UHGV virus genome: UHGV-0014912
Strand: one strand, 5' to 3'
Source: a virus
DNA length: 33,704 nucleotides
Shown: piece after piece, positions 5,296 to 25,877 of the stretch
Numbering within the stretch: the stretch's first letter is position 1
How the letters are laid out: every line of letters begins with the position of its first letter
Translations under genes and position numbers: made by a program
The notes under the pieces: model-generated
The model's input: the letters and a program-made list of their open reading frames with translations, nothing else
Told to the model about the DNA's origin: nothing
Databases searched by the model: none

Positions 5296-8200
5296 CTATA
5301 CTTTACTAATAAAGTAAACTGCTCTTGATGCTACCGCACGGTTCAACTCAGCCGTATATGTTAAGTCAACAGCTTGACCAGCTTCGATATAAGCGACACC
5401 ACCGTTTGAGCCGTTTAACGAACGGGATTCCGTGTAAACAACTTCCTGACCGTTTGATAATCTCAGCCACGCTTTACCACCGCCCCAACCAGTACCGCCT
5501 GAATATGTCCAACCTGAAATAGCAACGTTAGGAATAGCAATCATGCGTCTCCAGTTGACAGCAGGAAAATGAACTGTTCCCCACGGATCTATAAATCCCA
5601 TGTCAATAACGTCGCCTTCAATTCTGTCAGCGTATACAGTTCCTGTGAAATAACCTGAACCGCCTCTGATTTCTCCTGAGAAATAACCTGAGTCAGCTTG
5701 AATATTTCCTTTAACGTTAACGTTTTGGAAAGAAGCCCAACCGTCTTTTCTGATTGTCCAACCTTGAGTACCACCGGAAGAGAACCAGTTGTCAGAAGAT
5801 ATTTCATAAGCAATCTGAGCCGAACCGATCTGAGCATTACCAATTTTCGCTGATGTAATAGCACCGTTTTCAATCTTCGCGTTGTTAATAGCAGCATCGC
5901 GAATCTTTGCCGTATCAATTGAAGCGTTTGCAATCTTCGCATTACCGATTGAAGCATCACGAATCATAGCATCTTGGAGATAAGTCTTGTTATCTGCAAC
6001 CATGAACGGAGGAACAGCACCTTCAGGAGTGTTGTTATTCGTAATAGCGATTTTATCAGCGTTGAAAATAATGCTTGATGATTTCGAACCGTCAGCATTT
6101 TTATTAGCGAGCATACTGATACCAGCAACAACACCGTCGGCATTAGTCTGAACTGCCCATTTGCTGTTAATAGTTCCTGTCAGTTCGTCAACACTTGCTT
6201 TTGCTTCTGTTGAAACACTTGCAATTGCTGAGTCAGTTTCAGCTTTCAGTTGGCTAATTGCGCTTGCTGTTGCTTCTCTATCGTTAGCTTGAGTTTTTTC
6301 AACAGTCGTGATAGCAGCGTTTAATTTACCGTCAAACTCAGCCGATTGAATAGTAATAGCCTGATTGATAGCGCCATTCGTTCCATCAGTTATTTGAGTG
6401 TGTAACTCAGCGTTTTTGGTAATAATCGTCTGATTCAGTTCTGTTGTTACTTTTTGCTCCGACGCTATAACTTCTGTATCGGTATATTCCTTAGCAAGTT
6501 TCAAAGCGTCTTCAATAGCACCGTCAACGCGTTCGTTCAGGTCTAACAAGTCTTCTAATTGGTCTTTCATATCGTCGTTCCATGGAATATCCCATTTCAT
6601 ATCGATATAAGTCGCCTGTGACCAAGTAATCTGGTCTTGTCCGAAAACGTCATACCATGCTGCACGAACATAATATTGACCATCTTCTAACGGGAAGTTG
6701 TCTAAAAACGGACTTGAGCTTGAATAAACGTGAACAATTTCATTAAAGCTTTGGTCTTTCGCAATATGAACAATTGTGCCTTTGAAGTCAGGTACTTCAG
6801 GAATATTATCACGTGGGTCATTCCATGAACACATCAGCATTCCAGGACCATTCGAAGCTGTGAAACCTTGAATTGCAGGAGCTTGATTGTTCTTGACAGT
6901 AATAACACTCGGATCTGATTTCATACCAGCGTGACCGTATGCAGTAACAGAAACTTTCAGTTCGCGACTCAGACCATTACCCAAGTTCATATTAAAGTCG
7001 TATACAAAACCTAAATCTTTAGTCTTGTAAATTACAGGTCGTTGACCTTCGATTTTAATTTCGTAATACTGAAAAACTTCACCGAATGTCTGTAACGTGT
7101 CGTCAACATAGAATTTCTGTGCGCTCTGGTCGTCCCAGGCGAATTCAAATTGAGTCTTGTTAGTGGTGTACTGATCCTCAACCGCGTTCGTTAGGCGCAA
7201 TCCTGTAACGCTTGGTAAGTTATACGTAACATCAGGGTTAACGTTATTCACATATACCCATTCTGAACGATACACAACACCAGAAGCACAAACACGAATA
7301 TCAAATTTCTGATTAGGGTCAAGACTCATAATCAAGAAATAATCGCCTGATGTGAAACCTGCTTGAGTCCAAGAGTTCTGACCAGCAAGACTATACTGAA
7401 TATAATAACCTGCGCGGTTATAATCAGGTTCAGACGTCCATTGCACTTTCAAAGTTCTTCCTAAAGCGGTTTCAGCAACTGCTTTAACTGTCAGATTCTT
7501 CGGTGGAATAAGAACAGCTTTGTTAGGAATGTTACTTCCTGAGTTATCAGGGTCTTTCGCGTAGTCAAGATCGGTATAAACTTCTTCGATATATTCAGCA
7601 GCGGTAATAGTAACGATACCAGCAGCACCTTTTTCCATCGTGCGATCAACGTTAGTTACACGCCATAAGGAATCAGTCAGTTCCAGTTCTTCGAAATTAA
7701 CTCTGATAATATCCCAGACCTGAACGGTATAAGCATCAGCAGACGAAAAACTAATAACCTGTTGTAACAGTGATTTGTTTCGTTCTATTGAAGCAATTTT
7801 GTCCAACTGAGCTTTATCTTTAACGAATCTGTAACTAATATCTTTTGCGATAATACGTTTATCTTTTGCGATAGTTCCATCATTTGTTACGTCAGACGGA
7901 TAACGAAGAACTTGGTCAGAATAGTCAATCAAAGGATCTTGATATTTCACGTTCAGAGTGTTGTAGTAATTCTCTGTTCCACCATCGTTCAAGCTAACAG
8001 TTCCGGCGTTAATATTATCCTCGTTGAAATCATATTGAACAACACCAGGACCATCGATAACGCAAGTAACTAATCCGAAAGACTCTGTGATAATACCGTT
8101 AAAAGCACCTGCAATCTGAGTTAAGTTTTCTTTGAATGAACCATTCGGGTCAGTTGCACCGTTTGAAAACAGACTGTTCAGTTTTGCGTGTTCTGCACAT

Positions 8201-14644: not shown

Positions 14645-16615
14645 TTATTTTGCAGCTTTAGAACCAGCAGCTTCTGCTTTTTCATACAGATACAGACGGT
14701 CGTCAGCACAAACTTTCCAATCGATGTCAGCCCAAACACGTGGAACGATAGCACCGCGTGATTTGTAAGTTGTATCGTCCAGGTCAAGTGCAAGACCTTC
14801 CCATTCAGCAACAGTAACAGCAGAGAAATCACCAGCGATAACATTACCATCTTTCACCAGACCGGATCCGATAACGTCCTGTCCGCCGATTTTGTTCATG
14901 TCGTCGATGATATAACCAGCAACGTTCTGATCACGCAGGGTGGTTTTCAGATCACCTTCAAGAGCAGCAGCCATCAGATATTTGAACTTAGCCATTTCAA
15001 CGCCGTTACCTTTAGCTTTTGCAGCTTCAACGATGAACTCTTTGTAGGACATTCCCATTTTCTGAGCTACTAACTGTGCAACGATACTTTCTGGAGCTTT
15101 AGCATCGGTAATAGAACCGAACATCAGACCTTCCAGTTTAGCGCGAGACTGTTTTACGATGTGATCAGAAATGAAGCTTCCCAGATTAGGCATAGTCAAC
15201 AGAGCCTGACGAGAGATTGGGTTACCACCAGTAAATGTCTTAGGCATGAACTGAATGTTGGTAAATGCGCTTTCACCTTCTGGAGATTCACCGTTTTCGT
15301 CAACGAAACCGAATGCATCAACTGAGGATTTAGTCTGCTTAGGAACAGAAATTGGAGTTGTCAGACCGGTCAGGAAGTTCATTCCCAGTTGATCAGCAAC
15401 AGTGCCTTTCAGAAGCATTTCAACGAATGAATCGTAACGCTGAACTTCTTGCTGTACGCTTGATACAGTAGAAACGGTGTTGATTGCGCGGGCGTTCTGA
15501 GCAAGAGTATTAACAGGCAAGAAAATACCAGTCGAAACGTTCTGACCACGTTGTAGACGCTTACGAGTCATTTCCTGAGTATATTCAGCAGCAGCACCGC
15601 GAACAGCTTTACCAGCCATCATAGAGCGAACAGCATCACCAAGGTCGAATTTATTTTCCAGATTTACTTTAGTATCTTTAGTCATTTTACGAATTACCGC
15701 CGGAGCTTTGTTAGGTTTAATAGAGCGTTTGAATGCACGAGCTGTCATGCCTTTTGCAATTGCGTTCGCAACTTCTTTCTGCGGAACTTTATAACGTTCT
15801 GCGACTTCCAGAATTTCTTCTGTTTCTTCTGCGCGTTCTTCTTCTGTCAGTTCGTCATCAGCATGGGATTTATCAGTTTCGGTAACAGCAACGTCACCAG
15901 CTTGTTCTGCGTTTGCTTTATCTTCTGCAAGAATTTCTTCGCGTTTTGCGCGAGCTTCTTCTGGCATTGATTCAATTTCATCGATAGACATATCGGTCAA
16001 TTCTTCAATCGCCATTTCAACGATTTCGTCAACGGTAATATCTTCAAAACGTTTCATCTTATTTCCTCTATTTGTTGAATTTAATTTTTCGCGCAATTTC
16101 GTAGCGCTTTTGTTATCTGTATTTAGAAGTCTTCCCAGCCCAACAAAATCGTCAGCAGGAACAGTTACGAAACTAATTTCGTATGGTGCCCATTTTGTAA
16201 CTAACAGATTATCGCCTTGAAGTTCATATTCATTGATGTCGTATCCGAAGGAGATTTTACTAATAGTTCCTTCTTTAACTTTTTCATAAACTTCTTTAGC
16301 TAATGCACCGTGTTTACTAAATTGGACTTTTGCGCGACCAAATCGGTCACTATCGATTCGAACAGAACCAGGAATTACTTTTCCCAGATGATTATCGAAA
16401 TTATGATTGAACAGCAGAGCCGCACCATTATTAATTCGAGTCAAGTCGGCATTATCTGGACCATCGTGAACAAGAATTTCATTAACAGTAACAGGGTGAC
16501 CATATTCGTTTTCAATCTGACGCTCGACAGGAGTTTCAGAGCTAAACGCAATTTCAAAAATACCATCGGATTCAGTAATATCTTGAACTGTATACTCGCG
16601 TTTTAATTTAAGCAT
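14645..16615 (-). CDS. Prohead protease - scaffold - major capsid protein fusion (HK97-fold capsid), with an in-frame internal start for a capsid-only product
   Basis: Single ORF; N-terminal ~165 aa protease-like, acidic scaffold-like linker, C-terminal capsid-like region; ORF track start at 16627 is TTG, ATG at 16615 has a GAGGA RBS; internal in-frame ATG at 16057 with AGAGGAAATAAG RBS. Confidence 0.65.
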   Translation of the reverse strand: MLKLKREYTVQDITESDGIFEIAFSSETPVERQIENEYGHPVTVNEILVHDGPDNADLTRINNGAALLFNHNFDNHLGKVIPGSVRIDSDRFGRAKVQFSKHGALAKEVYEKVKEGTISKISFGYDINEYELQGDNLLVTKWAPYEISFVTVPADDFVGLGRLLNTDNKSATKLREKLNSTNRGNKMKRFEDITVDEIVEMAIEELTDMSIDEIESMPEEARAKREEILAEDKANAEQAGDVAVTETDKSHADDELTEEERAEETEEILEVAERYKVPQKEVANAIAKGMTARAFKRSIKPNKAPAVIRKMTKDTKVNLENKFDLGDAVRSMMAGKAVRGAAAEYTQEMTRKRLQRGQNVSTGIFLPVNTLAQNARAINTVSTVSSVQQEVQRYDSFVEMLLKGTVADQLGMNFLTGLTTPISVPKQTKSSVDAFGFVDENGESPEGESAFTNIQFMPKTFTGGNPISRQALLTMPNLGSFISDHIVKQSRAKLEGLMFGSITDAKAPESIVAQLVAQKMGMSYKEFIVEAAKAKGNGVEMAKFKYLMAAALEGDLKTTLRDQNVAGYIIDDMNKIGGQDVIGSGLVKDGNVIAGDFSAVTVAEWEGLALDLDDTTYKSRGAIVPRVWADIDWKVCADDRLYLYEKAEAAGSKAAK

Positions 16616-18728: not shown

Positions 18729-18738
18729 CTTTATTTAG
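18729..18738 (-). promoter_or_regulatory. CTAAATAAAG motif overlapping the large terminase stop, upstream of the 18222..18704 gene
   Basis: Exact 10-mer 27 nt upstream of the ATG. Confidence 0.35.
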
Positions 18739-20630
18739 TTAAGCCATCCACGTTTCTTTTGATTGCTTCGTTGTATACGATGCACAGAACGAGCCTGAAC
18801 GCGTTTAGGTTCTTGCTTAACTGGTTCTATTAGCTCTTGCTCTAAGTCTTCAGGAATTTCGACCTCTGCTTTGGAAGCTAGCTTTCTCCACTCGTGAAAT
18901 TTGATTTTCTCTAGAACTTGCAGACGCGCACAATAACCGTAGTTAAAGCAGTCAAGACCTTCGTTTCTGACTCCACCTTGCTTAATAACCCATCTGACAG
19001 TATTACCAGAGCGTTTAAGTTCTTCCGACATTAGCTGTTCGGTATAATCATCTGGAACATCATCAGAGATTTCGACTCTTACAGGCGTATTCTGAACATT
19101 CTTTATGCTTCTGTTTAGTAGCTCGCGAACCATGTCTTTGCCTTTGTTAACTCCAATCATGAACAGTTCATAACCGCCTGTTTTCGTGATTTTCGTTGGC
19201 ACATATGGAGCATCAACTGATGAAGCACCCTTAATAGCGTGTAAGTTTCTCCATTGAGAACAGAAACGATATATTGTTTTTGTTGCTCGACCATTTGAAC
19301 TATCGACGTTCGCCCATGCAAGAGTTAATTTTCTTCCTGAGTCAGTTCTGAAAGTCGCTTTCAGATAAGCAAGAAGGTCTTTATAAGCAGGCGAGTCGAT
19401 AACTTCGGCGTTCATCGTCATGAAAGAGCGATGGTCGAGGATATAAACTGTTTTCTCGTTGTGACCCATCAGTGTTACTTCCAAACGGTCTTGCTGTTGG
19501 TCAACACCCGCAGTTAAAAACAATGTGTCATCTGGAATATTTCTAATACCGATATCAGTTTTTAATTCATCAAGCTTTGAGGACTCCAGTTCTTCGTTTA
19601 AATCGTCAAACGGAATACCGAGAACAGTGTTATAAAACGTTGACAAACTGAAAGTCTGAAAAGCGTCTTTGAAGTCTGCAACGACTGATTTAATACTGGA
19701 CATCGGACTGTACAAACGATTTATATGGAATCCTGCAACATTCGATTCTGGATTAGTCTGAATCCATTCACCTTGTTTTACCGCTCTTGCTCTTTCTCCT
19801 TCTGTGAAATGATGTTCACAAACAGGACATTGAATATAAGCACTGTCGGGATCTGGTAGAGATTTACCGTCTTGTTTCAACCATTCGAATTTAATATTTT
19901 CCCAAATAAGTTCATGCATATGTCCACATTCAGGACATGGCACATGATATTTGCGCTTATCGGAGTTTTCATACTGCGTGTTAATAGCACCGTATTTGCC
20001 AGTAGGAGTTGAACAGATAAAGACACGAGCATCCTCGCCGAAAGTCGTAGCACGTTGCTCGGCTATCATTATCGGGTTGCCTTCTTCGGTGTCTGTTTCT
20101 ACTGCGTCAACTTCGTCTAACAGGAGCAACGGTAATGTCTTGCCTCGTAAGTGAGAAGGGGAGTTCAAACTCATGAAGTACCAAAAGCCACCGTTGCGGA
20201 GCTGAATCTGTGATGTGTTATTAACTGCGTTTCTGTCGTTCTTATCCGTGACTATTCGTTGCATCTCTTCGGATGCGTCAATCATTGGCTTAATCTTGCC
20301 TGATAACCACTGAGTTGTTTCTTTTGCTGTTGACTGTAAAACACCTGCGTTGCCTGGTTCTGTCGCAGACTTATAGAACAACACACCGTTCAGAATCGTT
20401 GTCTTGCCGATCTGTGCAGACGTCATCAGAACGATTTTTTTCTTTCTCTCTTTTATTACATCTATCATCCCGCGCTGGAACTCGAATAATTTCATCGGTT
20501 GTCCTGAGTGCGGACCATCTGGGAATTTCAAGTTAGCTTCGACCCACTCTGATGGTGTGTAGTCCGGTGGTGGAAGCAAGAAACGTTTTGCACGTTTTAG
20601 AATCAATTCTAGTTTTTGTTTGTTTTTCAT
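18735..20630 (-). CDS. Terminase large subunit (lambda GpA family)
   Basis: 631 aa; Walker A-like LMTSAQIGKTT, Walker B-like LLLLDEVD, zinc-ribbon-like CPECGH...CPVCEH, C-terminal nuclease-like region; AGGTGA RBS. Confidence 0.85.
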   Translation of the reverse strand: MKNKQKLELILKRAKRFLLPPPDYTPSEWVEANLKFPDGPHSGQPMKLFEFQRGMIDVIKERKKKIVLMTSAQIGKTTILNGVLFYKSATEPGNAGVLQSTAKETTQWLSGKIKPMIDASEEMQRIVTDKNDRNAVNNTSQIQLRNGGFWYFMSLNSPSHLRGKTLPLLLLDEVDAVETDTEEGNPIMIAEQRATTFGEDARVFICSTPTGKYGAINTQYENSDKRKYHVPCPECGHMHELIWENIKFEWLKQDGKSLPDPDSAYIQCPVCEHHFTEGERARAVKQGEWIQTNPESNVAGFHINRLYSPMSSIKSVVADFKDAFQTFSLSTFYNTVLGIPFDDLNEELESSKLDELKTDIGIRNIPDDTLFLTAGVDQQQDRLEVTLMGHNEKTVYILDHRSFMTMNAEVIDSPAYKDLLAYLKATFRTDSGRKLTLAWANVDSSNGRATKTIYRFCSQWRNLHAIKGASSVDAPYVPTKITKTGGYELFMIGVNKGKDMVRELLNRSIKNVQNTPVRVEISDDVPDDYTEQLMSEELKRSGNTVRWVIKQGGVRNEGLDCFNYGYCARLQVLEKIKFHEWRKLASKAEVEIPEDLEQELIEPVKQEPKRVQARSVHRIQRSNQKKRGWLN

Positions 20631-20775
20631 AAGTCACCTAAGCTAATGAATCCTTTATGGATTCCATCTCTCATGACTCTATTTATGAAAATATCCACAA
20701 TTATTTTCGGAGGTCGCTTGCACCTGGATTTTCGCCTGTTAAAGTTCAATCCATCGAAACACGGGGAATAACGAA

Positions 20776-21216
20776 ATGAAAAACGCATTAACTGTTGAAA
20801 ATAAAATTGCTTCTGAGTTAAACGCTGGTACTGAATTATCAGAACGTAAGCTTGCAGAGAAATTTGAAACAACTCGTTCCGTTGTTTGTCGTGTTAAAGC
20901 GAACATCGAGAAATACACAGTTGTTGAAGCTGTACAGGAAGAAAAACCTGAAGTTAAAAAACTTAATACAGCAGAAGTTATCGACACTGTAAAAGCTGAG
21001 GAGATTACTCACAAAGCTGTAGGACTCGATAATATTGAAAAGCTTCTCGCTAGTAAGTCAGCGAATAAAAAGCCCGCTGAAATTAGCTTGTTAATTTTTA
21101 AATCGGTAAAAGGAGATTTTGAGTTATTCAGTAAGCAAATGAAGGGAAAATCATCGCAGTATATTAAAGACCAATTTTTACGCTCTAAAAATAAACTTGA
21201 TAAGGATTCAAAATGA
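20776..21216 (+). CDS. Putative DNA-binding (HTH) protein, first gene of a three-gene coupled operon
   Basis: 146 aa; N-terminal HTH-like segment (TELSERKLAEKFETTRSVVCRVKAN); transcribed divergently from the large terminase gene. Confidence 0.35.
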   Translation: MKNALTVENKIASELNAGTELSERKLAEKFETTRSVVCRVKANIEKYTVVEAVQEEKPEVKKLNTAEVIDTVKAEEITHKAVGLDNIEKLLASKSANKKPAEISLLIFKSVKGDFELFSKQMKGKSSQYIKDQFLRSKNKLDKDSK

Positions 21217-21311
21217 AAGCTGTTAAAACTGTAATCGCTGTTATCGTTGCTGTTTCTTCTATGTCTGCTAATGGTATCGCGATAGACTTTGATTATTGCG
21301 TTAAGATATGA
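21213..21311 (+). CDS. Small hydrophobic peptide (32 aa), translationally coupled on both sides
   Basis: MKAVKTVIAVIVAVSSMSANGIAIDFDYCVKI; ATGA overlaps with both the upstream stop and the downstream start; below the ORF-track size cutoff. Confidence 0.25.
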   Translation: MKAVKTVIAVIVAVSSMSANGIAIDFDYCVKI

Positions 21312-21556
21312 AATTAGATATCCCACCGACATGGAGACACGATTTTAAGATTTCATCATGTGGCAAGTACATAACGTTAGAACTCTTTATACCGAGTGTC
21401 TCCGCGATGGTGGGATATCGTGCAAAGAGGATTACAATTCGTGCTATGTTTGATGCTTTTCAGTTTAATGATCGCAAGACGCAACAAACGTTAATTCGCT
21501 TGCTTGAAGAACTGAACAAAAAATATTATTCAATAATTGAGATATTTCCAAAATGA
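21308..21556 (+). CDS. Hypothetical protein
   Basis: 82 aa, ATGA-coupled to the small peptide ORF and followed by a terminator. Confidence 0.3.
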   Translation: MKLDIPPTWRHDFKISSCGKYITLELFIPSVSAMVGYRAKRITIRAMFDAFQFNDRKTQQTLIRLLEELNKKYYSIIEIFPK

Positions 21557-21561
21557 CAAAA

Positions 21562-21585
21562 GGGAGCTTAGTGCTTCCTTTTTTA
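21562..21585. terminator. Bidirectional terminator between convergent genes
   Basis: GGGAGC / GCTTCC stem (one G-U pair) followed by TTTTTT on the plus strand and preceded by AAAA. Confidence 0.5.
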
Positions 21586-21882
21586 GATATCACCCGTCAT
21601 AACATCATTAAAGAATTTTCTCGCCTGAGCATTAGTACCCATAAAAGCGATGAACTCACCATCCAGAACAATCTGTATAGCGCGTTTGATAAAATCATCT
21701 TGAACACGTTTCGATAATATTATATCAACCGGTCTTGGATCCATATCAGTTAAATCTGGATGTTCCTGAATCGGCCTGATAATAGATTCTGACTGACGAA
21801 CAATTATCGGCATTTCGTGTCTGTGTTTTTCCAGAAATTCAATATCGAATTCTGTTTTACCGTCTAGCAAAAGTTGTTTCAT
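21583..21882 (-). CDS. Hypothetical protein (last gene of the HEG-lipoprotein operon)
   Basis: 99 aa; start overlaps the lipoprotein stop (ATGA). Confidence 0.3.
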   Translation of the reverse strand: MKQLLLDGKTEFDIEFLEKHRHEMPIIVRQSESIIRPIQEHPDLTDMDPRPVDIILSKRVQDDFIKRAIQIVLDGEFIAFMGTNAQARKFFNDVMTGDI

Positions 21883-22091
21883 AGTTTTCCTTCATTTAAT
21901 TTTCTGCAACTGTCAATATCGAGTTTAGCTGTTTCTGGATTATACTCTGTGAGATTACAGATAACACCTTGCTGTTTGAATGTTTCAACGTTGATATTAC
22001 TGTTAATACATCCTATCAGAGAAAAAGCTCCGACAATCGTCAGAGCCATGATAATAGGTTTAAAAAGTTGTTTTGCTTGTTCGTTATTCAT
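21879..22091 (-). CDS. Small outer-membrane-type lipoprotein (candidate superinfection-exclusion, Cor/Llp-like)
   Basis: 70 aa; signal peptide with lipobox LIGC (PIIMALTIVGAFSLIGC); mature part about 45 aa; TAATG-coupled to the upstream HEG. Confidence 0.4.
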   Translation of the reverse strand: MNNEQAKQLFKPIIMALTIVGAFSLIGCINSNINVETFKQQGVICNLTEYNPETAKLDIDSCRKLNEGKL

Positions 22092-22699
22092 TACGCTGCC
22101 TCTCTTAAACGACGTGCTTGTTGTGCTAGTTTCATTTTCTCGATAGTTTCAGCAGAACGAGTTCCGATAACACGACCTTTATTTGCTTTGCCGATTTTCT
22201 TTTTTGTTTCTTCTGACTGAACAGAACCGGTTTTTGCTTTTGAGATTTTTCTACGTGTCTCTAGTGAAACAACATGACCAGTCATGCTATCAGAGATTTT
22301 CTTGTTTCTTTCTTTAATTTGTTGTTCTGTCATGGATTTAAAAACGTTGCCTCCCGCTTGTCCTGATGAAATATTTAATAAGTTAGCTTGCTGTTGTCTT
22401 GCGTGTTTAATGCAAGCAGTTTCGAAGTCATACGCTTCCTGTTCGTCTGTGAAAGTCTTTAGAACAACTTTAAACACAACGTCTGTCGGTTTCATTTCTG
22501 CTAGTTTCTCACGAACTAAACGACCGCTGCCTATATAAAGCATGTCAGGCTGTTCATTGTAAGATTGTTTGCCGTAATAAACGTAACTGACATCATTGAT
22601 GCGAAAAACGGTTTTATAAACTGCGTAAGCTTTGATTTCAGCGTTACGGATATCAGAACGGGTTTTGTAAGTTACGTTGTTAATAGTGCGCTTGTGCAT
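22091..22699 (-). CDS. GIY-YIG homing endonuclease with NUMOD3 repeats (Seg / I-TevI-like)
   Basis: 202 aa; N-terminal GIY-YIG-like AVYKTVFRINDVSYVYYGKQ; three C-terminal NUMOD3-like repeats (GHVVSLETRRKISKAKTG, SVQSEETKKKIGKANKG, RVIGTRSAETIEKMKLAQ). Confidence 0.7.
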   Translation of the reverse strand: MHKRTINNVTYKTRSDIRNAEIKAYAVYKTVFRINDVSYVYYGKQSYNEQPDMLYIGSGRLVREKLAEMKPTDVVFKVVLKTFTDEQEAYDFETACIKHARQQQANLLNISSGQAGGNVFKSMTEQQIKERNKKISDSMTGHVVSLETRRKISKAKTGSVQSEETKKKIGKANKGRVIGTRSAETIEKMKLAQQARRLREAA

Positions 22700-23117
22700 T
22701 TGAGTTTCCTTAAAGTTAAAAATAAAAGTGAAAGAGATTTACATTCAGTTGTTTTTCTGAATTACACTTGTATTTAGTAACTAGGTTTATCTATAACCTG
22801 ATAAAAACAGGGAATAGCACTAAATGATCAAGGAACACTCCTATTAAATTAACGTTTGTTAATAAATCCTAGGACGCATCAGGTTGAAACCAGATAGCAA
22901 TATGAACAGGAGTAACATCAAGGTCGGTTAATGCAGCAGGATAGATCCTAGAAAGAACCTGATAACAGCTTGAACATAACGAGAAAGGGCGCTAGCCCGT
23001 CGAAAGCTCGCTTGCGAGATTGAGACTAACTAACGAATTCAGATTTAATTAGCGATCATTAAGTTTATTAGATATCCAGTGATCAGTATAATGCAGTTAA
23101 CCAGTAATCAATATTAT

Positions 23118-23337
23118 CCAGATCTGAAAACAAGATAGGCGCAGCCGCGCGAAGCGCTAATAATATTATCTAGAAAAAACATTATTAACTTAGTCAAACT
23201 TGATTATCTGGATTACTGAGTGATCATAACAATGTTGACTTAGTGTTATCTGTCGCGCTTACGCGCTAATGTTATTAATTGGGGCTAACGCCCTCTCGTC
23301 GAGCAAGCTCTCCTCGCTATCTGGTTTTCAGATCTGG
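23118..23337. repeat. 21-bp imperfect inverted repeat pair (23118..23138 and 23317..23337) bracketing a ~180 bp segment with iteron-like TATC(C/T)(A/T)G copies
   Basis: CCAGATCTGAAAACAAGATAG versus CTATCTGGTTTTCAGATCTGG (two mismatches); six TATCCAG / TATCTGG / TATCTAG / TATCTGT motifs between 23073 and 23324. Confidence 0.5.
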
Positions 23338-23429
23338 TTCTTTCCTTGTTTTTAAAACCTTCCATATCATCTTTATCCAATTGTTCTTATAGGGAGATTT
23401 TTCTCAGTATCCATGCGCTTCTCCGACTT

Positions 23430-23471
23430 GCATCGATGCGCTATCGATGCGTTTTGCTGTACATCGATGCA
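23430..23471. promoter_or_regulatory. Three tandem operator-like palindromes (GCATCGATGC core)
   Basis: GCATCGATGC at 23430..23439 (perfect 10-bp palindrome) with related copies ending at 23450 and 23470, about 90-130 bp upstream of the 23562 gene. Confidence 0.45.
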
Positions 23472-23529
23472 CTTTGTTCCGATTGTTTTTGATCATTTTG
23501 TGCTGAGATAAGTTTACGACTTCTCTCCT

Positions 23530-23537
23530 TATAAATA
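23530..23537 (+). promoter_or_regulatory. TATAAATA element (T4-late-promoter-like) upstream of the 23562..24008 gene
   Basis: Exact TATAAATA 25 nt upstream of the ATG, followed by AAGGAG RBS. Confidence 0.35.
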
Positions 23538-23561
23538 TTCTTTGAACAAAGGAGAATCCTA

Positions 23562-24008
23562 ATGAGCTACTATTTTTGTAACGTCGGTGAAGTTTTCGAC
23601 GGAGAAATTTCTATTCTTCGAAAGCGTGATATTTTCACAAACACGATTATCGGAGATGTATCAACCCAAAAAGAAAAAATGAAAAAATGTTCACCTAGTA
23701 TTCAGAGACATTTAGAAAAAAGTCAGAATCTTGATATCGGTTGCGTCTATGTTTTAAAGCTTGAGAACGAAAAATGGTATGTTGGATATACTAAAAACAT
23801 ATTAGGAAGAATTAAAGAACATGCTATGGGTATTGGTGCTGAATGGACAAAAACTAACAAACCTATTCAACTTGTTAATTTTTTCATCGGAGATCATAAA
23901 ATTGAGAGAAGATTTACTGAAGAATTAATGATTAAGTTCGGCTGGCAAAATGTTAGAGGTGCAAGATGGACTGCTAACGAGATTCTTTGTCCTATGATGT
24001 TCAGATAA
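23562..24008 (+). CDS. GIY-YIG nuclease-domain protein with a ~60 aa N-terminal extension
   Basis: 148 aa; GCVYVLKLENEKWYVGYTKNILGRIKEH fits the GIY-(~10)-YVG pattern of small GIY-YIG proteins. Confidence 0.55.
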   Translation: MSYYFCNVGEVFDGEISILRKRDIFTNTIIGDVSTQKEKMKKCSPSIQRHLEKSQNLDIGCVYVLKLENEKWYVGYTKNILGRIKEHAMGIGAEWTKTNKPIQLVNFFIGDHKIERRFTEELMIKFGWQNVRGARWTANEILCPMMFR

Positions 24009-24182
24009 TTTTTCGAGAGTTTGTTTACTATCCCGGTGATGGGTATAAATACTAGTATAAGTTAAAGATTCGCACTGATTGAGAGATTTCTTCCTCGTTT
24101 GTTTACTCTCAGTCATTACGATTATAAAATAACTATGAAAGCAAGTTCATTTAGAAAATCCAAATAAAATTCCTTAAAGTTT

Positions 24183-24208
24183 GAAGCACTCTTCGGAGTG
24201 CTCTTTTT
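24183..24208 (+). terminator. Strong intrinsic terminator
   Basis: AGCACTC-TTCG-GAGTGCT stem-loop followed by CTTTTTTC. Confidence 0.7.
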
Positions 24209-24394
24209 TCAACATTACAAAAAAGGCAACCCATGAAATTTATTCCAAATAAGTTCGAAATTGAATCTCGATTAGATGCTGGTGAAACTTTTCAGCAGAT
24301 TGCAGAATCAAAGAAAATGAATAAAGCAACGCTGTATAACGCTTGCAAAAAACGCAACATCAGAACGACTAAACAGAAATAAAAGGAAAACAAA

Positions 24395-25312
24395 ATGAAA
24401 TTTTCAGTATTTGATAACTTAAACGGAACCACTAACGTTAGCTTGAATAAAAAAATTGTTAAGACTAACGAAATGACCAACAACAGAAACAAACTGAAAG
24501 CATTTGTCGGAAGTTTTACCGATATTCATCGCAACGTTAGAGCAAAAATGCTAACTAAAATTGAAAATGCTTTGACTGTAAAAGATATGCGTAACTTTGA
24601 AATCGGTATGTCCGAACTGAATGATAAACCTGCTATCGTTGCTTATACAACTGATAAAGCTGTTATCGTTTGTTCAGAAGCAAATCGTTGGAAAGCTCTT
24701 GGTTCAGACCTGACTTTAGTTCATGCGAAAGAATCCCAAAACTTTGTTCAGCAATATATTGGTGATTTTATCGAGATTAAAGAAGAAATTGAATTTCCGA
24801 CTGAACAGAAAGTTGACGTTATTTCTAACGAGTTGGAAGAATTGAGAAAAGAAATTGAGAAAATGAAAAAAGAAAAGGCAGAACATAAAAAACTTATCTC
24901 TGCCTATGCGAAAAATTATAAGGGTGATGAATTATCTTTTGATGAAGACCTGACGATTATCAAACATCAGAACAGTATTAAATCAGAAGTTGGCGCTTCC
25001 GAAATTTCTAACGAATCAACTGTATTTAGTGTAACAGAAACAGCAGAAAATTTAAACGACGACCTGATCGTTTCTATCGATCAATCAAACAAGGAAAATA
25101 AAATGCCTTTATATGATTATTCCTGCGAATGCGGAAACTATTTCGAAAAAACAAGAAAAATCTCTGAACGTTCTAGCGCTGAATGTCCTGAATGCCATAA
25201 AGAAGCAAAACAGCAACTGACAGCACCAGCCGGAATTCAAAACGGTTATTACGAACAAGGCAGAATGTTCATTAACAGAAACAAACAAACGTTTAAAACT
25301 GCTACACGATAA
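24395..25312 (+). CDS. Coiled-coil protein with a C-terminal FmdB-type zinc-ribbon domain
   Basis: 305 aa; C-terminal MPLYDYSCECGNYFEKTRKISERSSAECPECHK (CxC...CxxC); internal AAGGAAA RBS before that Met suggests possible separate expression of the zinc-ribbon part. Confidence 0.4.
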   Translation: MKFSVFDNLNGTTNVSLNKKIVKTNEMTNNRNKLKAFVGSFTDIHRNVRAKMLTKIENALTVKDMRNFEIGMSELNDKPAIVAYTTDKAVIVCSEANRWKALGSDLTLVHAKESQNFVQQYIGDFIEIKEEIEFPTEQKVDVISNELEELRKEIEKMKKEKAEHKKLISAYAKNYKGDELSFDEDLTIIKHQNSIKSEVGASEISNESTVFSVTETAENLNDDLIVSIDQSNKENKMPLYDYSCECGNYFEKTRKISERSSAECPECHKEAKQQLTAPAGIQNGYYEQGRMFINRNKQTFKTATR

Positions 25313-25330
25313 AGGAGCATCGCGCTCCTT
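25312..25330. terminator. Bidirectional terminator between convergent genes
   Basis: GGAGC-ATCGC-GCTCC stem-loop flanked by AAA and TTAATTAATTT. Confidence 0.45.
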
Positions 25331-25877
25331 AATTAATTTCTATCATGTCTTGTGATTGTTCAGATTCTTTTTCGTCTTCTGATTCGTCCTGTTCGTTCGG
25401 ATCTTCGTTTAGTTCCTGTTCGAACAGTTCAACACCGTTTAGAGTATCGTCGATAATTCTTTTCAGTGTTTCTTTCACCGTCTGAACATCAGAAGCTGAT
25501 TCCAAAATTTCGATAGCATGTTTATTCGGTATTAATCGCATAACAGATTTTAAGTCAGCACAAAAACGGTTCAACTCAGATTGAACATATTCAACTGGAA
25601 TTAATTGCTCCGATTTTTCTTGCGCTGTGTATTGAGCCAAGTCTGCTTTTGCTTTCTGCTCGCGGAGTTTTTCTTTCTCCATTTCATCGCGAACGGACAT
25701 ATTACGCATCGGGTTAATTTTGTTCTCAATTATCCAACGAGTGCCTTCGTCTTCTGGAATACCAGAGGGATTATCTGAATACGGAAGTCCTTCTGCACGC
25801 CAGCTCTTGATAGCGTTCAGGGTATAACCATAACGACGCGCCATATCAGTCATTGAAATATATGTTTTTCTTGCCAT
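25329..25877 (-). CDS. Putative terminase small subunit (lambda Nu1-like winged HTH)
   Basis: 182 aa (lambda Nu1 is 181 aa); N-terminal block SMTDMARRYGYTLNAIKSWRAEGLPY resembles Nu1 QLADIFGASIRTIQNWQEQGMPV; acidic C-terminus; a MerR-like regulator is the alternative. Confidence 0.45.
   Translation of the reverse strand: MARKTYISMTDMARRYGYTLNAIKSWRAEGLPYSDNPSGIPEDEGTRWIIENKINPMRNMSVRDEMEKEKLREQKAKADLAQYTAQEKSEQLIPVEYVQSELNRFCADLKSVMRLIPNKHAIEILESASDVQTVKETLKRIIDDTLNGVELFEQELNEDPNEQDESEDEKESEQSQDMIEIN

Follow-up and report, generated by a model that had tools for sequence, protein, structure and literature searches.

The window, by which we mean the whole stretch of 33,704 nucleotides that was analyzed, is a prophage with a GC content of about 39%, low for E. 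coli, that terminates in a serine recombinase beside ybiT. Its annotated E. coli relatives span about 35 kb between ybiT and ldtB, and one of them (NZ_AP027790, positions 3149864-3184725; loci L036/L037) encodes a serine recombinase together with structural and lysis genes. Nothing in this ~35-kb element was recognized as a gene for a repressor, an antirepressor, or replication. The gpA-type large terminase gene terL (18735-20630, minus strand) is followed by genes for the portal, the protease-capsid protein, and the tail; the closest annotated phage match of TerL shares 51% identity and comes from a record of doubtful assembly. The small terminase gene terS (25329-25877) also lies on the minus strand, and the two terminase genes are unusually far apart, with 4.7 kb between them (20631-25328).

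This terS-terL interval contains a gene for a 146-amino-acid GntR-like helix-turn-helix (HTH) protein (20776-21216, plus strand), a gene for an I-TevI-like NUMOD3 endonuclease, and an 860-bp non-coding region that ends in a cluster of palindromic repeats. To the right of the palindromes follow a GIY-YIG gene, a small HTH ORF of 49 amino acids (24233-24382), and a zinc-ribbon protein. Across related prophages the interval combines a conserved core (the GntR-like HTH protein, the NUMOD3 endonuclease, the non-coding module, and the small HTH protein with its partner) with variable cargo such as a reverse transcriptase of the retron Ec67 family (CP107720, L032 7740-9509), an AAA_21/HNH gene pair (L061), or YadA-anchor proteins, so that it looks like a hotspot for accessory or defense genes. 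The 49-amino-acid HTH ORF and the 305-amino-acid zinc-ribbon ORF are separate in the window (24233-25312); at L032, an annotated 246-amino-acid hypothetical protein (6569-7309) covers only the homologue of the 305-amino-acid ORF (tblastn 6632-7207), and the HTH homologue (6463-6597) begins upstream of it and is unannotated. D-type loci encode the C-terminal FmdB-type zinc ribbon in an ORF of its own, 69 amino acids long.

From position 23427 the window reads CTT GCATCGATGC G CTATCGATGC G TTTT GCTGT ACATCGATGC AC on its plus strand. Direct reading of this sequence confirmed a perfect 10-bp palindrome, GCATCGATGC, at 23430-23439 (copy 1), followed by the 2 near copies that the preliminary description had placed 11 and 20 bp further on: CTATCGATGC at 23441-23450 (copy 2, offset 11, 2 mismatches to GCATCGATGC) and ACATCGATGC at 23461-23470 (copy 3, offset 20 from copy 2, 1 mismatch). 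A weak fourth copy, ATCCATGCGCT, lies at 23409-23419 on the same strand, 23 bp upstream of copy 1. Rather than 3 independent palindromes, the cluster is best viewed as one unit, ATCGATGCRYT, repeated in direct orientation; with the bases that follow each palindrome, the units read ATCGATGCGCT (23430-23442), ATCGATGCGTT (23441-23453), and ATCGATGCACT (23461-23473).

A lone 10-bp palindrome would be unremarkable in this DNA, because the window holds 33 of them and about 39 are expected. The 8-mer ATCGATGC, which occurs 3 times on the plus strand, is restricted to the cluster and found nowhere else in the 33.7 kb. When the whole window was shuffled 300 times by dinucleotides, just 4 of the shuffles contained any 8-mer tripled within 45 nt. 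The sole other 8-mer triple of the window, TTCTTCTG (3 times at 15815-15846), falls within the sequence that codes for the protease-capsid protein, where it probably reflects repeated codons. Since the cluster is kept in related prophages, it cannot be put down to chance. Its copies are spaced centre to centre by 11 and 20-21 bp, which add up to 31-32 bp; these distances are near 1, 2, and 3 helical turns and place the sites on roughly one face of the helix.

We compared 13 prophage variants, namely the window (W) and 12 relatives from E. coli, Citrobacter, and Enterobacter that came from E. coli genomes, IMG/VR contigs, a metagenome scan, and homologues of the GntR-like protein. These 13 variants are not 13 independent lineages, given that W, F, and G are near identical at the repeats. 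Copies of the locus in 3 assemblies were identical to the window and showed zero variation. Complete E. coli genomes matched by DNA similarity in 7 of 5426 cases, a DNA similarity search of phage and plasmid collections gave no match, and neither did 2 pattern or protein scans of genome contigs. The metagenome scan yielded only new copies of variants already known, and the loose pattern ATCGATGCNNNATCGATGC mostly produced chance matches across viral contigs.

The GIY-YIG gene (23562-24008, plus strand, assigned by a GIY-YIG domain match) starts close to the repeats as stated before, at a distance of 132 bp from copy 1 and 92 bp from copy 3, and the preliminary description had proposed that the palindromes tightly repress it. 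A dedicated operator of this gene would make sense in that a nuclease is plausibly toxic and in need of tight repression; a related idea is that the repeats are the homing or cleavage site of the GIY-YIG gene. However, the gene is missing from all 12 other repeat-bearing variants. It sits on a window-specific insertion of about 515 bp (23490-24004, plus strand) that is absent from the relatives and flanked by the imperfect direct repeat TGATCATTTTG / AGATAATTTTT. The alignment of variant A covers window positions 23045-23472 and picks up again at 24005, with 14 bp in between; variant F (Citrobacter, L060) is near identical to the window around the repeats and its slot is empty; and variants G and K carry an unrelated gene for a protein of 222/236 amino acids in the slot. 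The protein itself is an orphan: Searches found no relatives beyond its own cluster, which consists of copies of the same prophage, and tblastn against the other variants tested gave no match. The gene's own putative promoter, a weak site at 23513-23541 on the plus strand (TTTACG at 23513-23518, a 17-nt spacer, and TATTCT at 23536-23541), also argues against this arrangement as a GIY-YIG operator, since the nearest promoter-like hexamers lie at least 42 nt downstream of the repeats. We consider both versions of this link to the nuclease very improbable.

Relatives keep the repeats with the slot empty or otherwise filled, and the repeats therefore predate the GIY-YIG gene and are independent of it; the gene is a later, lineage-specific insertion. 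The repeats are part of the backbone that a small family of enterobacterial prophages of ~35 kb has in common. The main result is a correction: The window viewed alone suggests a link between palindromes and nuclease, while comparison with the relatives shows the nuclease gene to be a passenger next to repeats of the prophage backbone.

The core of the cluster, ATCGATGCG-YT-ATCGATGCG, is unchanged in 12 of the 13 variants, a raw count that overstates the invariance because the variants are not independent. The sole variable position between copies 1 and 2 is 23441 (C or T), inside the loop of a hairpin that these copies can form. Nearby sequence does vary, with changes at 6 of 20 nt just upstream of the repeats and bases 3' of the T-tract that change freely. 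Copy 3 is a perfect GCATCGATGC in variants C, F, G, I, J, and K, has one mismatch in W, A, and B, and is missing from D and H; its orientation is effectively symmetric, and its offset is 20 or 21 bp. Copy 4, TCCATGC(G/A)CTT, is kept in W, A, B, C, F, G, H, I, and K and missing from J, D, and E.

J and D have unrelated flanks and have lost the 5' GC of copy 1, which removes 2 GC clamp pairs and weakens the hairpin to -5.7 kcal/mol (compared to -11.5 kcal/mol), yet their ATCGATGCG pair is intact. Recombination between copies 2 and 3 has deleted one copy and the T-tract in variant H, which is common in Enterobacter, and K, J, and D2 keep the repeats without the promoter that lies upstream in other variants. 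Variant E has a tandem 11-bp pair of the related unit TTTGCGATGCA (2 times) with the core CGATGCRYT in common, and this pair is unable to form a strong hairpin with itself; E also contains an inverted third copy and a decayed remnant of a W-type pair. D-type variants display 4 direct GGGCACC repeats with 11/19/11-bp spacing immediately upstream of the ATCGATGCG pair (L039 6443-6500, minus strand; L067 9010-9065), the first 2 of which form a hairpin followed by T5. It is the sequence of the repeats that is conserved and not merely a structure.

We tentatively interpret the repeats as a phased, sequence-specific protein-binding array at the edge of the accessory-gene slot, a reading that is quite possible though short of probable. 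Recognition by a protein is favored because it accounts for how many copies there are, for their phasing, and for the fact that the repeats are strictly invariant and persist across the variants. An operator array is expected to comprise 2 or more conserved palindromic or pseudopalindromic sites spaced by whole helical turns, and what we find are 3 copies plus a weak fourth with invariant cores, spaced by 11 and 20-21 bp with the fourth copy 23 bp upstream. The terS-terL interval itself encodes HTH proteins whose conservation extends across the variants. The cooperative repressor-type arrangement proposed in the preliminary description survives as a putative protein-binding array, while its GIY-YIG target does not. 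The repeats overlap no promoter-like hexamers, the nearest of which begin at 23513, 42 nt after copy 3, and the next rightward promoter of the relatives lies 36 to 76 nt from copy 2, as counted from the sequences. Such a variable distance is a poor fit to a repressor or activator of fixed geometry. Neither CGATGCRYT nor ATCGATGC occurs elsewhere in the window, which is at odds with a repeated operator motif and speaks against the earlier suggestion of an immunity-type operator, given that typical immunity operators recur elsewhere in their prophage.

As we picture it, the array would act from its position inside the 4.7-kb terS-terL interval, at the right edge of the non-coding module and immediately left of the accessory-gene slot. 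The bound complex would most likely control or block rightward transcription into the slot and the downstream HTH operon and could do so as an upstream regulatory site or as a roadblock. Since the unit contains ATCGAT, neighboring copies are also able to pair in RNA, and copies 1 and 2 plus UUUU may add to the same insulating effect as a rightward terminator; the hairpin with its U-tract may accordingly be a by-product or an added insulating function. If a prophage regulator binds the repeats, they mark the entry point of the accessory slot within the terS-terL interval and would offer a handle on the expression or silencing of cargo in lysogens of a poorly known ~35-kb family of E. coli, Citrobacter, and Enterobacter.

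The best candidate for the putative binding protein is the GntR-like protein encoded at 20776-21216, with its HTH at the N-terminus. Its Pfam match to GntR scores 22 bits and is below the family cutoff, and an AF2 model shows an N-terminal HTH that resembles Lrp, GntR, and DeoR regulators with weak E-values. The protein is present in all non-degraded variants with an invariant helix, RSVVRRVK; no covariation was seen between any candidate recognition helix, that of the GntR-like protein included, and the deviating motif of variant E. The small HTH protein is a poorer candidate because it is divergent, with 34-46% identity between variants that have identical repeats. TerS is another possible candidate. 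A sequence search of the candidate proteins against solved structures returned nothing useful.

Arrays of this kind have well-known counterparts, and the repeat array belongs to an ordinary, common class of regulatory cis-elements. The Arc/Mnt operators of phage P22 have subsites 11 bp apart, and parC of plasmid R1 consists of 11-bp repeats bound by ParR. The array shares with these tandem subsites the short, partly palindromic units, neighbors at 11 bp, distances of whole helical turns, and strict conservation. Unlike in these systems, no ribbon-helix-helix or other cognate protein was found for the putative sites here, and the array lies off the promoter at a distance that varies among relatives. 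Lambda OR1-3 and OL1-3 are 17-bp sites spaced by about 23-24 bp that overlap promoters at 2 loci. Three related pseudopalindromic sites in a prophage recall such operator clusters and suggest cooperative binding, but the sites of the array are about 10 bp long, spaced by 11 and 20 bp, and located at a single locus upstream of promoters.

The preliminary description, which viewed the palindromes as protein-binding sites only, had missed the hairpin of copies 1 and 2 and the TTTT (23452-23455) behind it. Folding predicts 9-10 pairs with GC pairs in the stem, a 3-nt loop, and about -11.5 kcal/mol, and a generic terminator scan picks hairpin and T-tract (23429-23455) on the plus strand only, as a hairpin at 23429-23451 followed by TTTTGCTG. 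The U-tract consists of UUUU after a single G, with 5 T in 8 nt. The main alternative to the protein-binding array is that the repeats are an intrinsic terminator and nothing else: a rightward, Rho-independent stem-loop of copies 1 and 2 with a UUUU tail that would end a non-coding transcript of about 355 nt and insulate it from the downstream promoters, with copy 3 as a spare or alternative pairing partner.

The presumed transcript would start from a sigma-70-like promoter at 23064-23092 on the plus strand (TTTATT, a 17-nt spacer, and TATAAT, then a conserved GCAGTTA), 340 nt upstream of the hairpin and followed by around 330 nt without any conserved ORF. In 10 of 13 variants its hexamers (TTTATT/C and TATAAT) are preserved at a distance of exactly 17 nt, with a spacer that differs freely in sequence; the promoter is missing in K, J, and D2, and a scan calls one in D. 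Downstream of it, alignments revealed 4 short GC hairpins on the plus strand: H1 (23147-23157, GCGC-GAA-GCGC), H2 (23255-23266, GCGC-TTAC-GCGC), H3 (23282-23293, GGGC-TAAC-GCCC), and H4 (23295-23303, CTC-GTC-GAG). Their stems are conserved, indels are confined to the loops, and compensatory pair changes can be read from the alignments for H3 (variant C) and H4 (variants W and D). The module at 23064-23340 may represent a non-coding RNA that has so far gone undescribed, or else a signal in single-stranded DNA. Both of its strands fold equally well and above shuffles, and RNAalifold detected almost no covariation. A search of the window for trans targets with complementarity to the module gave none. 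Rfam at its gathering threshold gave no match in the window, which also has no tRNA; at relaxed E-values, positions 22000-24300 gave 3 chance-level matches (E 1.5-4.4), none of them at the repeats, and locus L024 gave none. Between the module and the repeats lies a conserved block (23358-23402) with the nearly invariant core TTGTTCTTATAGGG, which is held at a fixed distance from the repeats with zero indels in W, A, B, and C.

Several other ideas for this region were rejected. A leftward promoter in the conserved block would have TATAAG as its -10 element, and its -35 element is not conserved. Candidate peptides of a hidden small ORF in the module, on both strands, lose their frame between variants. 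A 21-nt inverted repeat (23118-23138 and 23317-23337, 95% complementary and 178 nt apart) around the palindrome CCAGATCTGG, together with the retron reverse transcriptase of CP107720, had raised the idea of a retron msr-msd. The position of the repeat is not conserved, with the CCAGATCTGG motif found instead in the spacer of the upstream promoter in B, C, and D, and the window has no reverse transcriptase.

For a terminator speak not only the scan match and this promoter with conserved hexamers and no conserved ORF behind it, but also that the hairpin reaches -11.5 to -13 kcal/mol in 9 variants and that a T4-5 tract, present on the plus strand only, is kept in 11 of 13 (it is lost in H and different in E). 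In addition, the distance of the repeats to the upstream module is fixed while that to the downstream promoters varies (36-76 nt), copy 3 drifts more than copies 1 and 2, and variants D and E with their weakened hairpins have another hairpin and T-run just upstream. The 9-10-bp stem with GC pairs at its base, the 3-nt loop, the immediate U-tract, and the unidirectional signal downstream of a conserved promoter without an ORF in between all resemble intrinsic terminators. However, a terminator needs just one inverted repeat and not 3 or 4 self-palindromic units in direct phase, whereas here the arms of the stem are themselves direct repeats of such a unit and are joined by a third and a fourth copy. 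The stem positions carry no substitutions in 12 variants, with zero compensatory or G-U changes at 18 stem positions, so that conservation of structure over sequence is not what the alignment displays. This differs from a genuine terminator further downstream (24185-24202, plus strand), a strong hairpin followed by T6 about 750 bp from the repeats and directly ahead of the HTH ORF at 24233, where variants show a compensatory stem change and a swap between UUCG and GCAA tetraloops. The U-tract of the repeats is only 4 nt long and lost in the widespread variant H, the GC clamp is lost in J and D, and the promoter in K, J, and D2, but the repeats are kept in all of these. Around 0.9 scan matches are expected by chance in the region, and the equal folding of both strands of the upstream module does not favor a transcript of one of them. 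A role as terminator alone is thus conceivable but rather unlikely.

Another alternative is that the repeats are iterons of a replication origin or terminase recognition sites akin to cosB or pac, forming one signal together with the adjacent AT-rich DNA, clustered GATC sites, and GC mini-hairpins of the GCGAAGC type. The repeats are indeed direct and in helical phase, hairpins of the GCGCGAAGCGC type are conserved, and the stretch at 22700-23561 is enriched in GATC (4.4-fold over the window average, 8 sites) and in TTATCY (5.6-fold, one orientation throughout). The ~35-kb element lacks a recognized replication initiator or repressor, and TerS has an N-terminal HTH that hardly changes between variants. 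But no Rep-like gene lies nearby, and DnaA boxes occur at chance level window-wide with one 8/9 match in the region. Regarding packaging, lambda's site is located upstream of terS, with cosB between the nicking site and the terS start, whereas the array lies inside the terS-terL interval at a distance of 1.9 kb downstream of terS. Good conservation (86-88%) is also seen in the region upstream of terS. Typical iterons and the R sites of lambda have longer units at wider spacing than the array. An origin or packaging function is therefore improbable in our view.

We also considered a broader version in which the array and the hairpin-rich, promoter-driven module together form the control centre of a prophage family without recognizable repressor or replication genes, acting perhaps as an origin of the iteron type or as an immunity switch based on RNA and protein. 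This would be a long shot; if true, the control centre would lie within the terS-terL interval, where it would border a hotspot in which nucleases, retrons, and other defense genes accumulate.

Beyond the slot, 2 tandem promoter-like sites on the plus strand (24021-24049 and 24099-24130, TTGTTT-N17/18-TATAAA) read TTTGTTTAC ... TATAAA(A)T. Together with the strong hairpin ahead of the HTH ORF, these sites suggest a short RNA or an attenuator at 24021-24232. On the other side of the non-coding region, a conserved hairpin (ATTCAG-N8-CTGAAT, 22740-22765) lies just upstream of the start codon of the NUMOD3 endonuclease gene on the minus strand and could control it. Just upstream of terS, positions 26214-27397 hold the gene of a TIR-domain protein (Pfam CAP12-PCTIR_TIR; PADLOC PDC-S35, E 1e-70) and a small ORF of the YuaX family, and both are conserved in the E. 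coli relatives.
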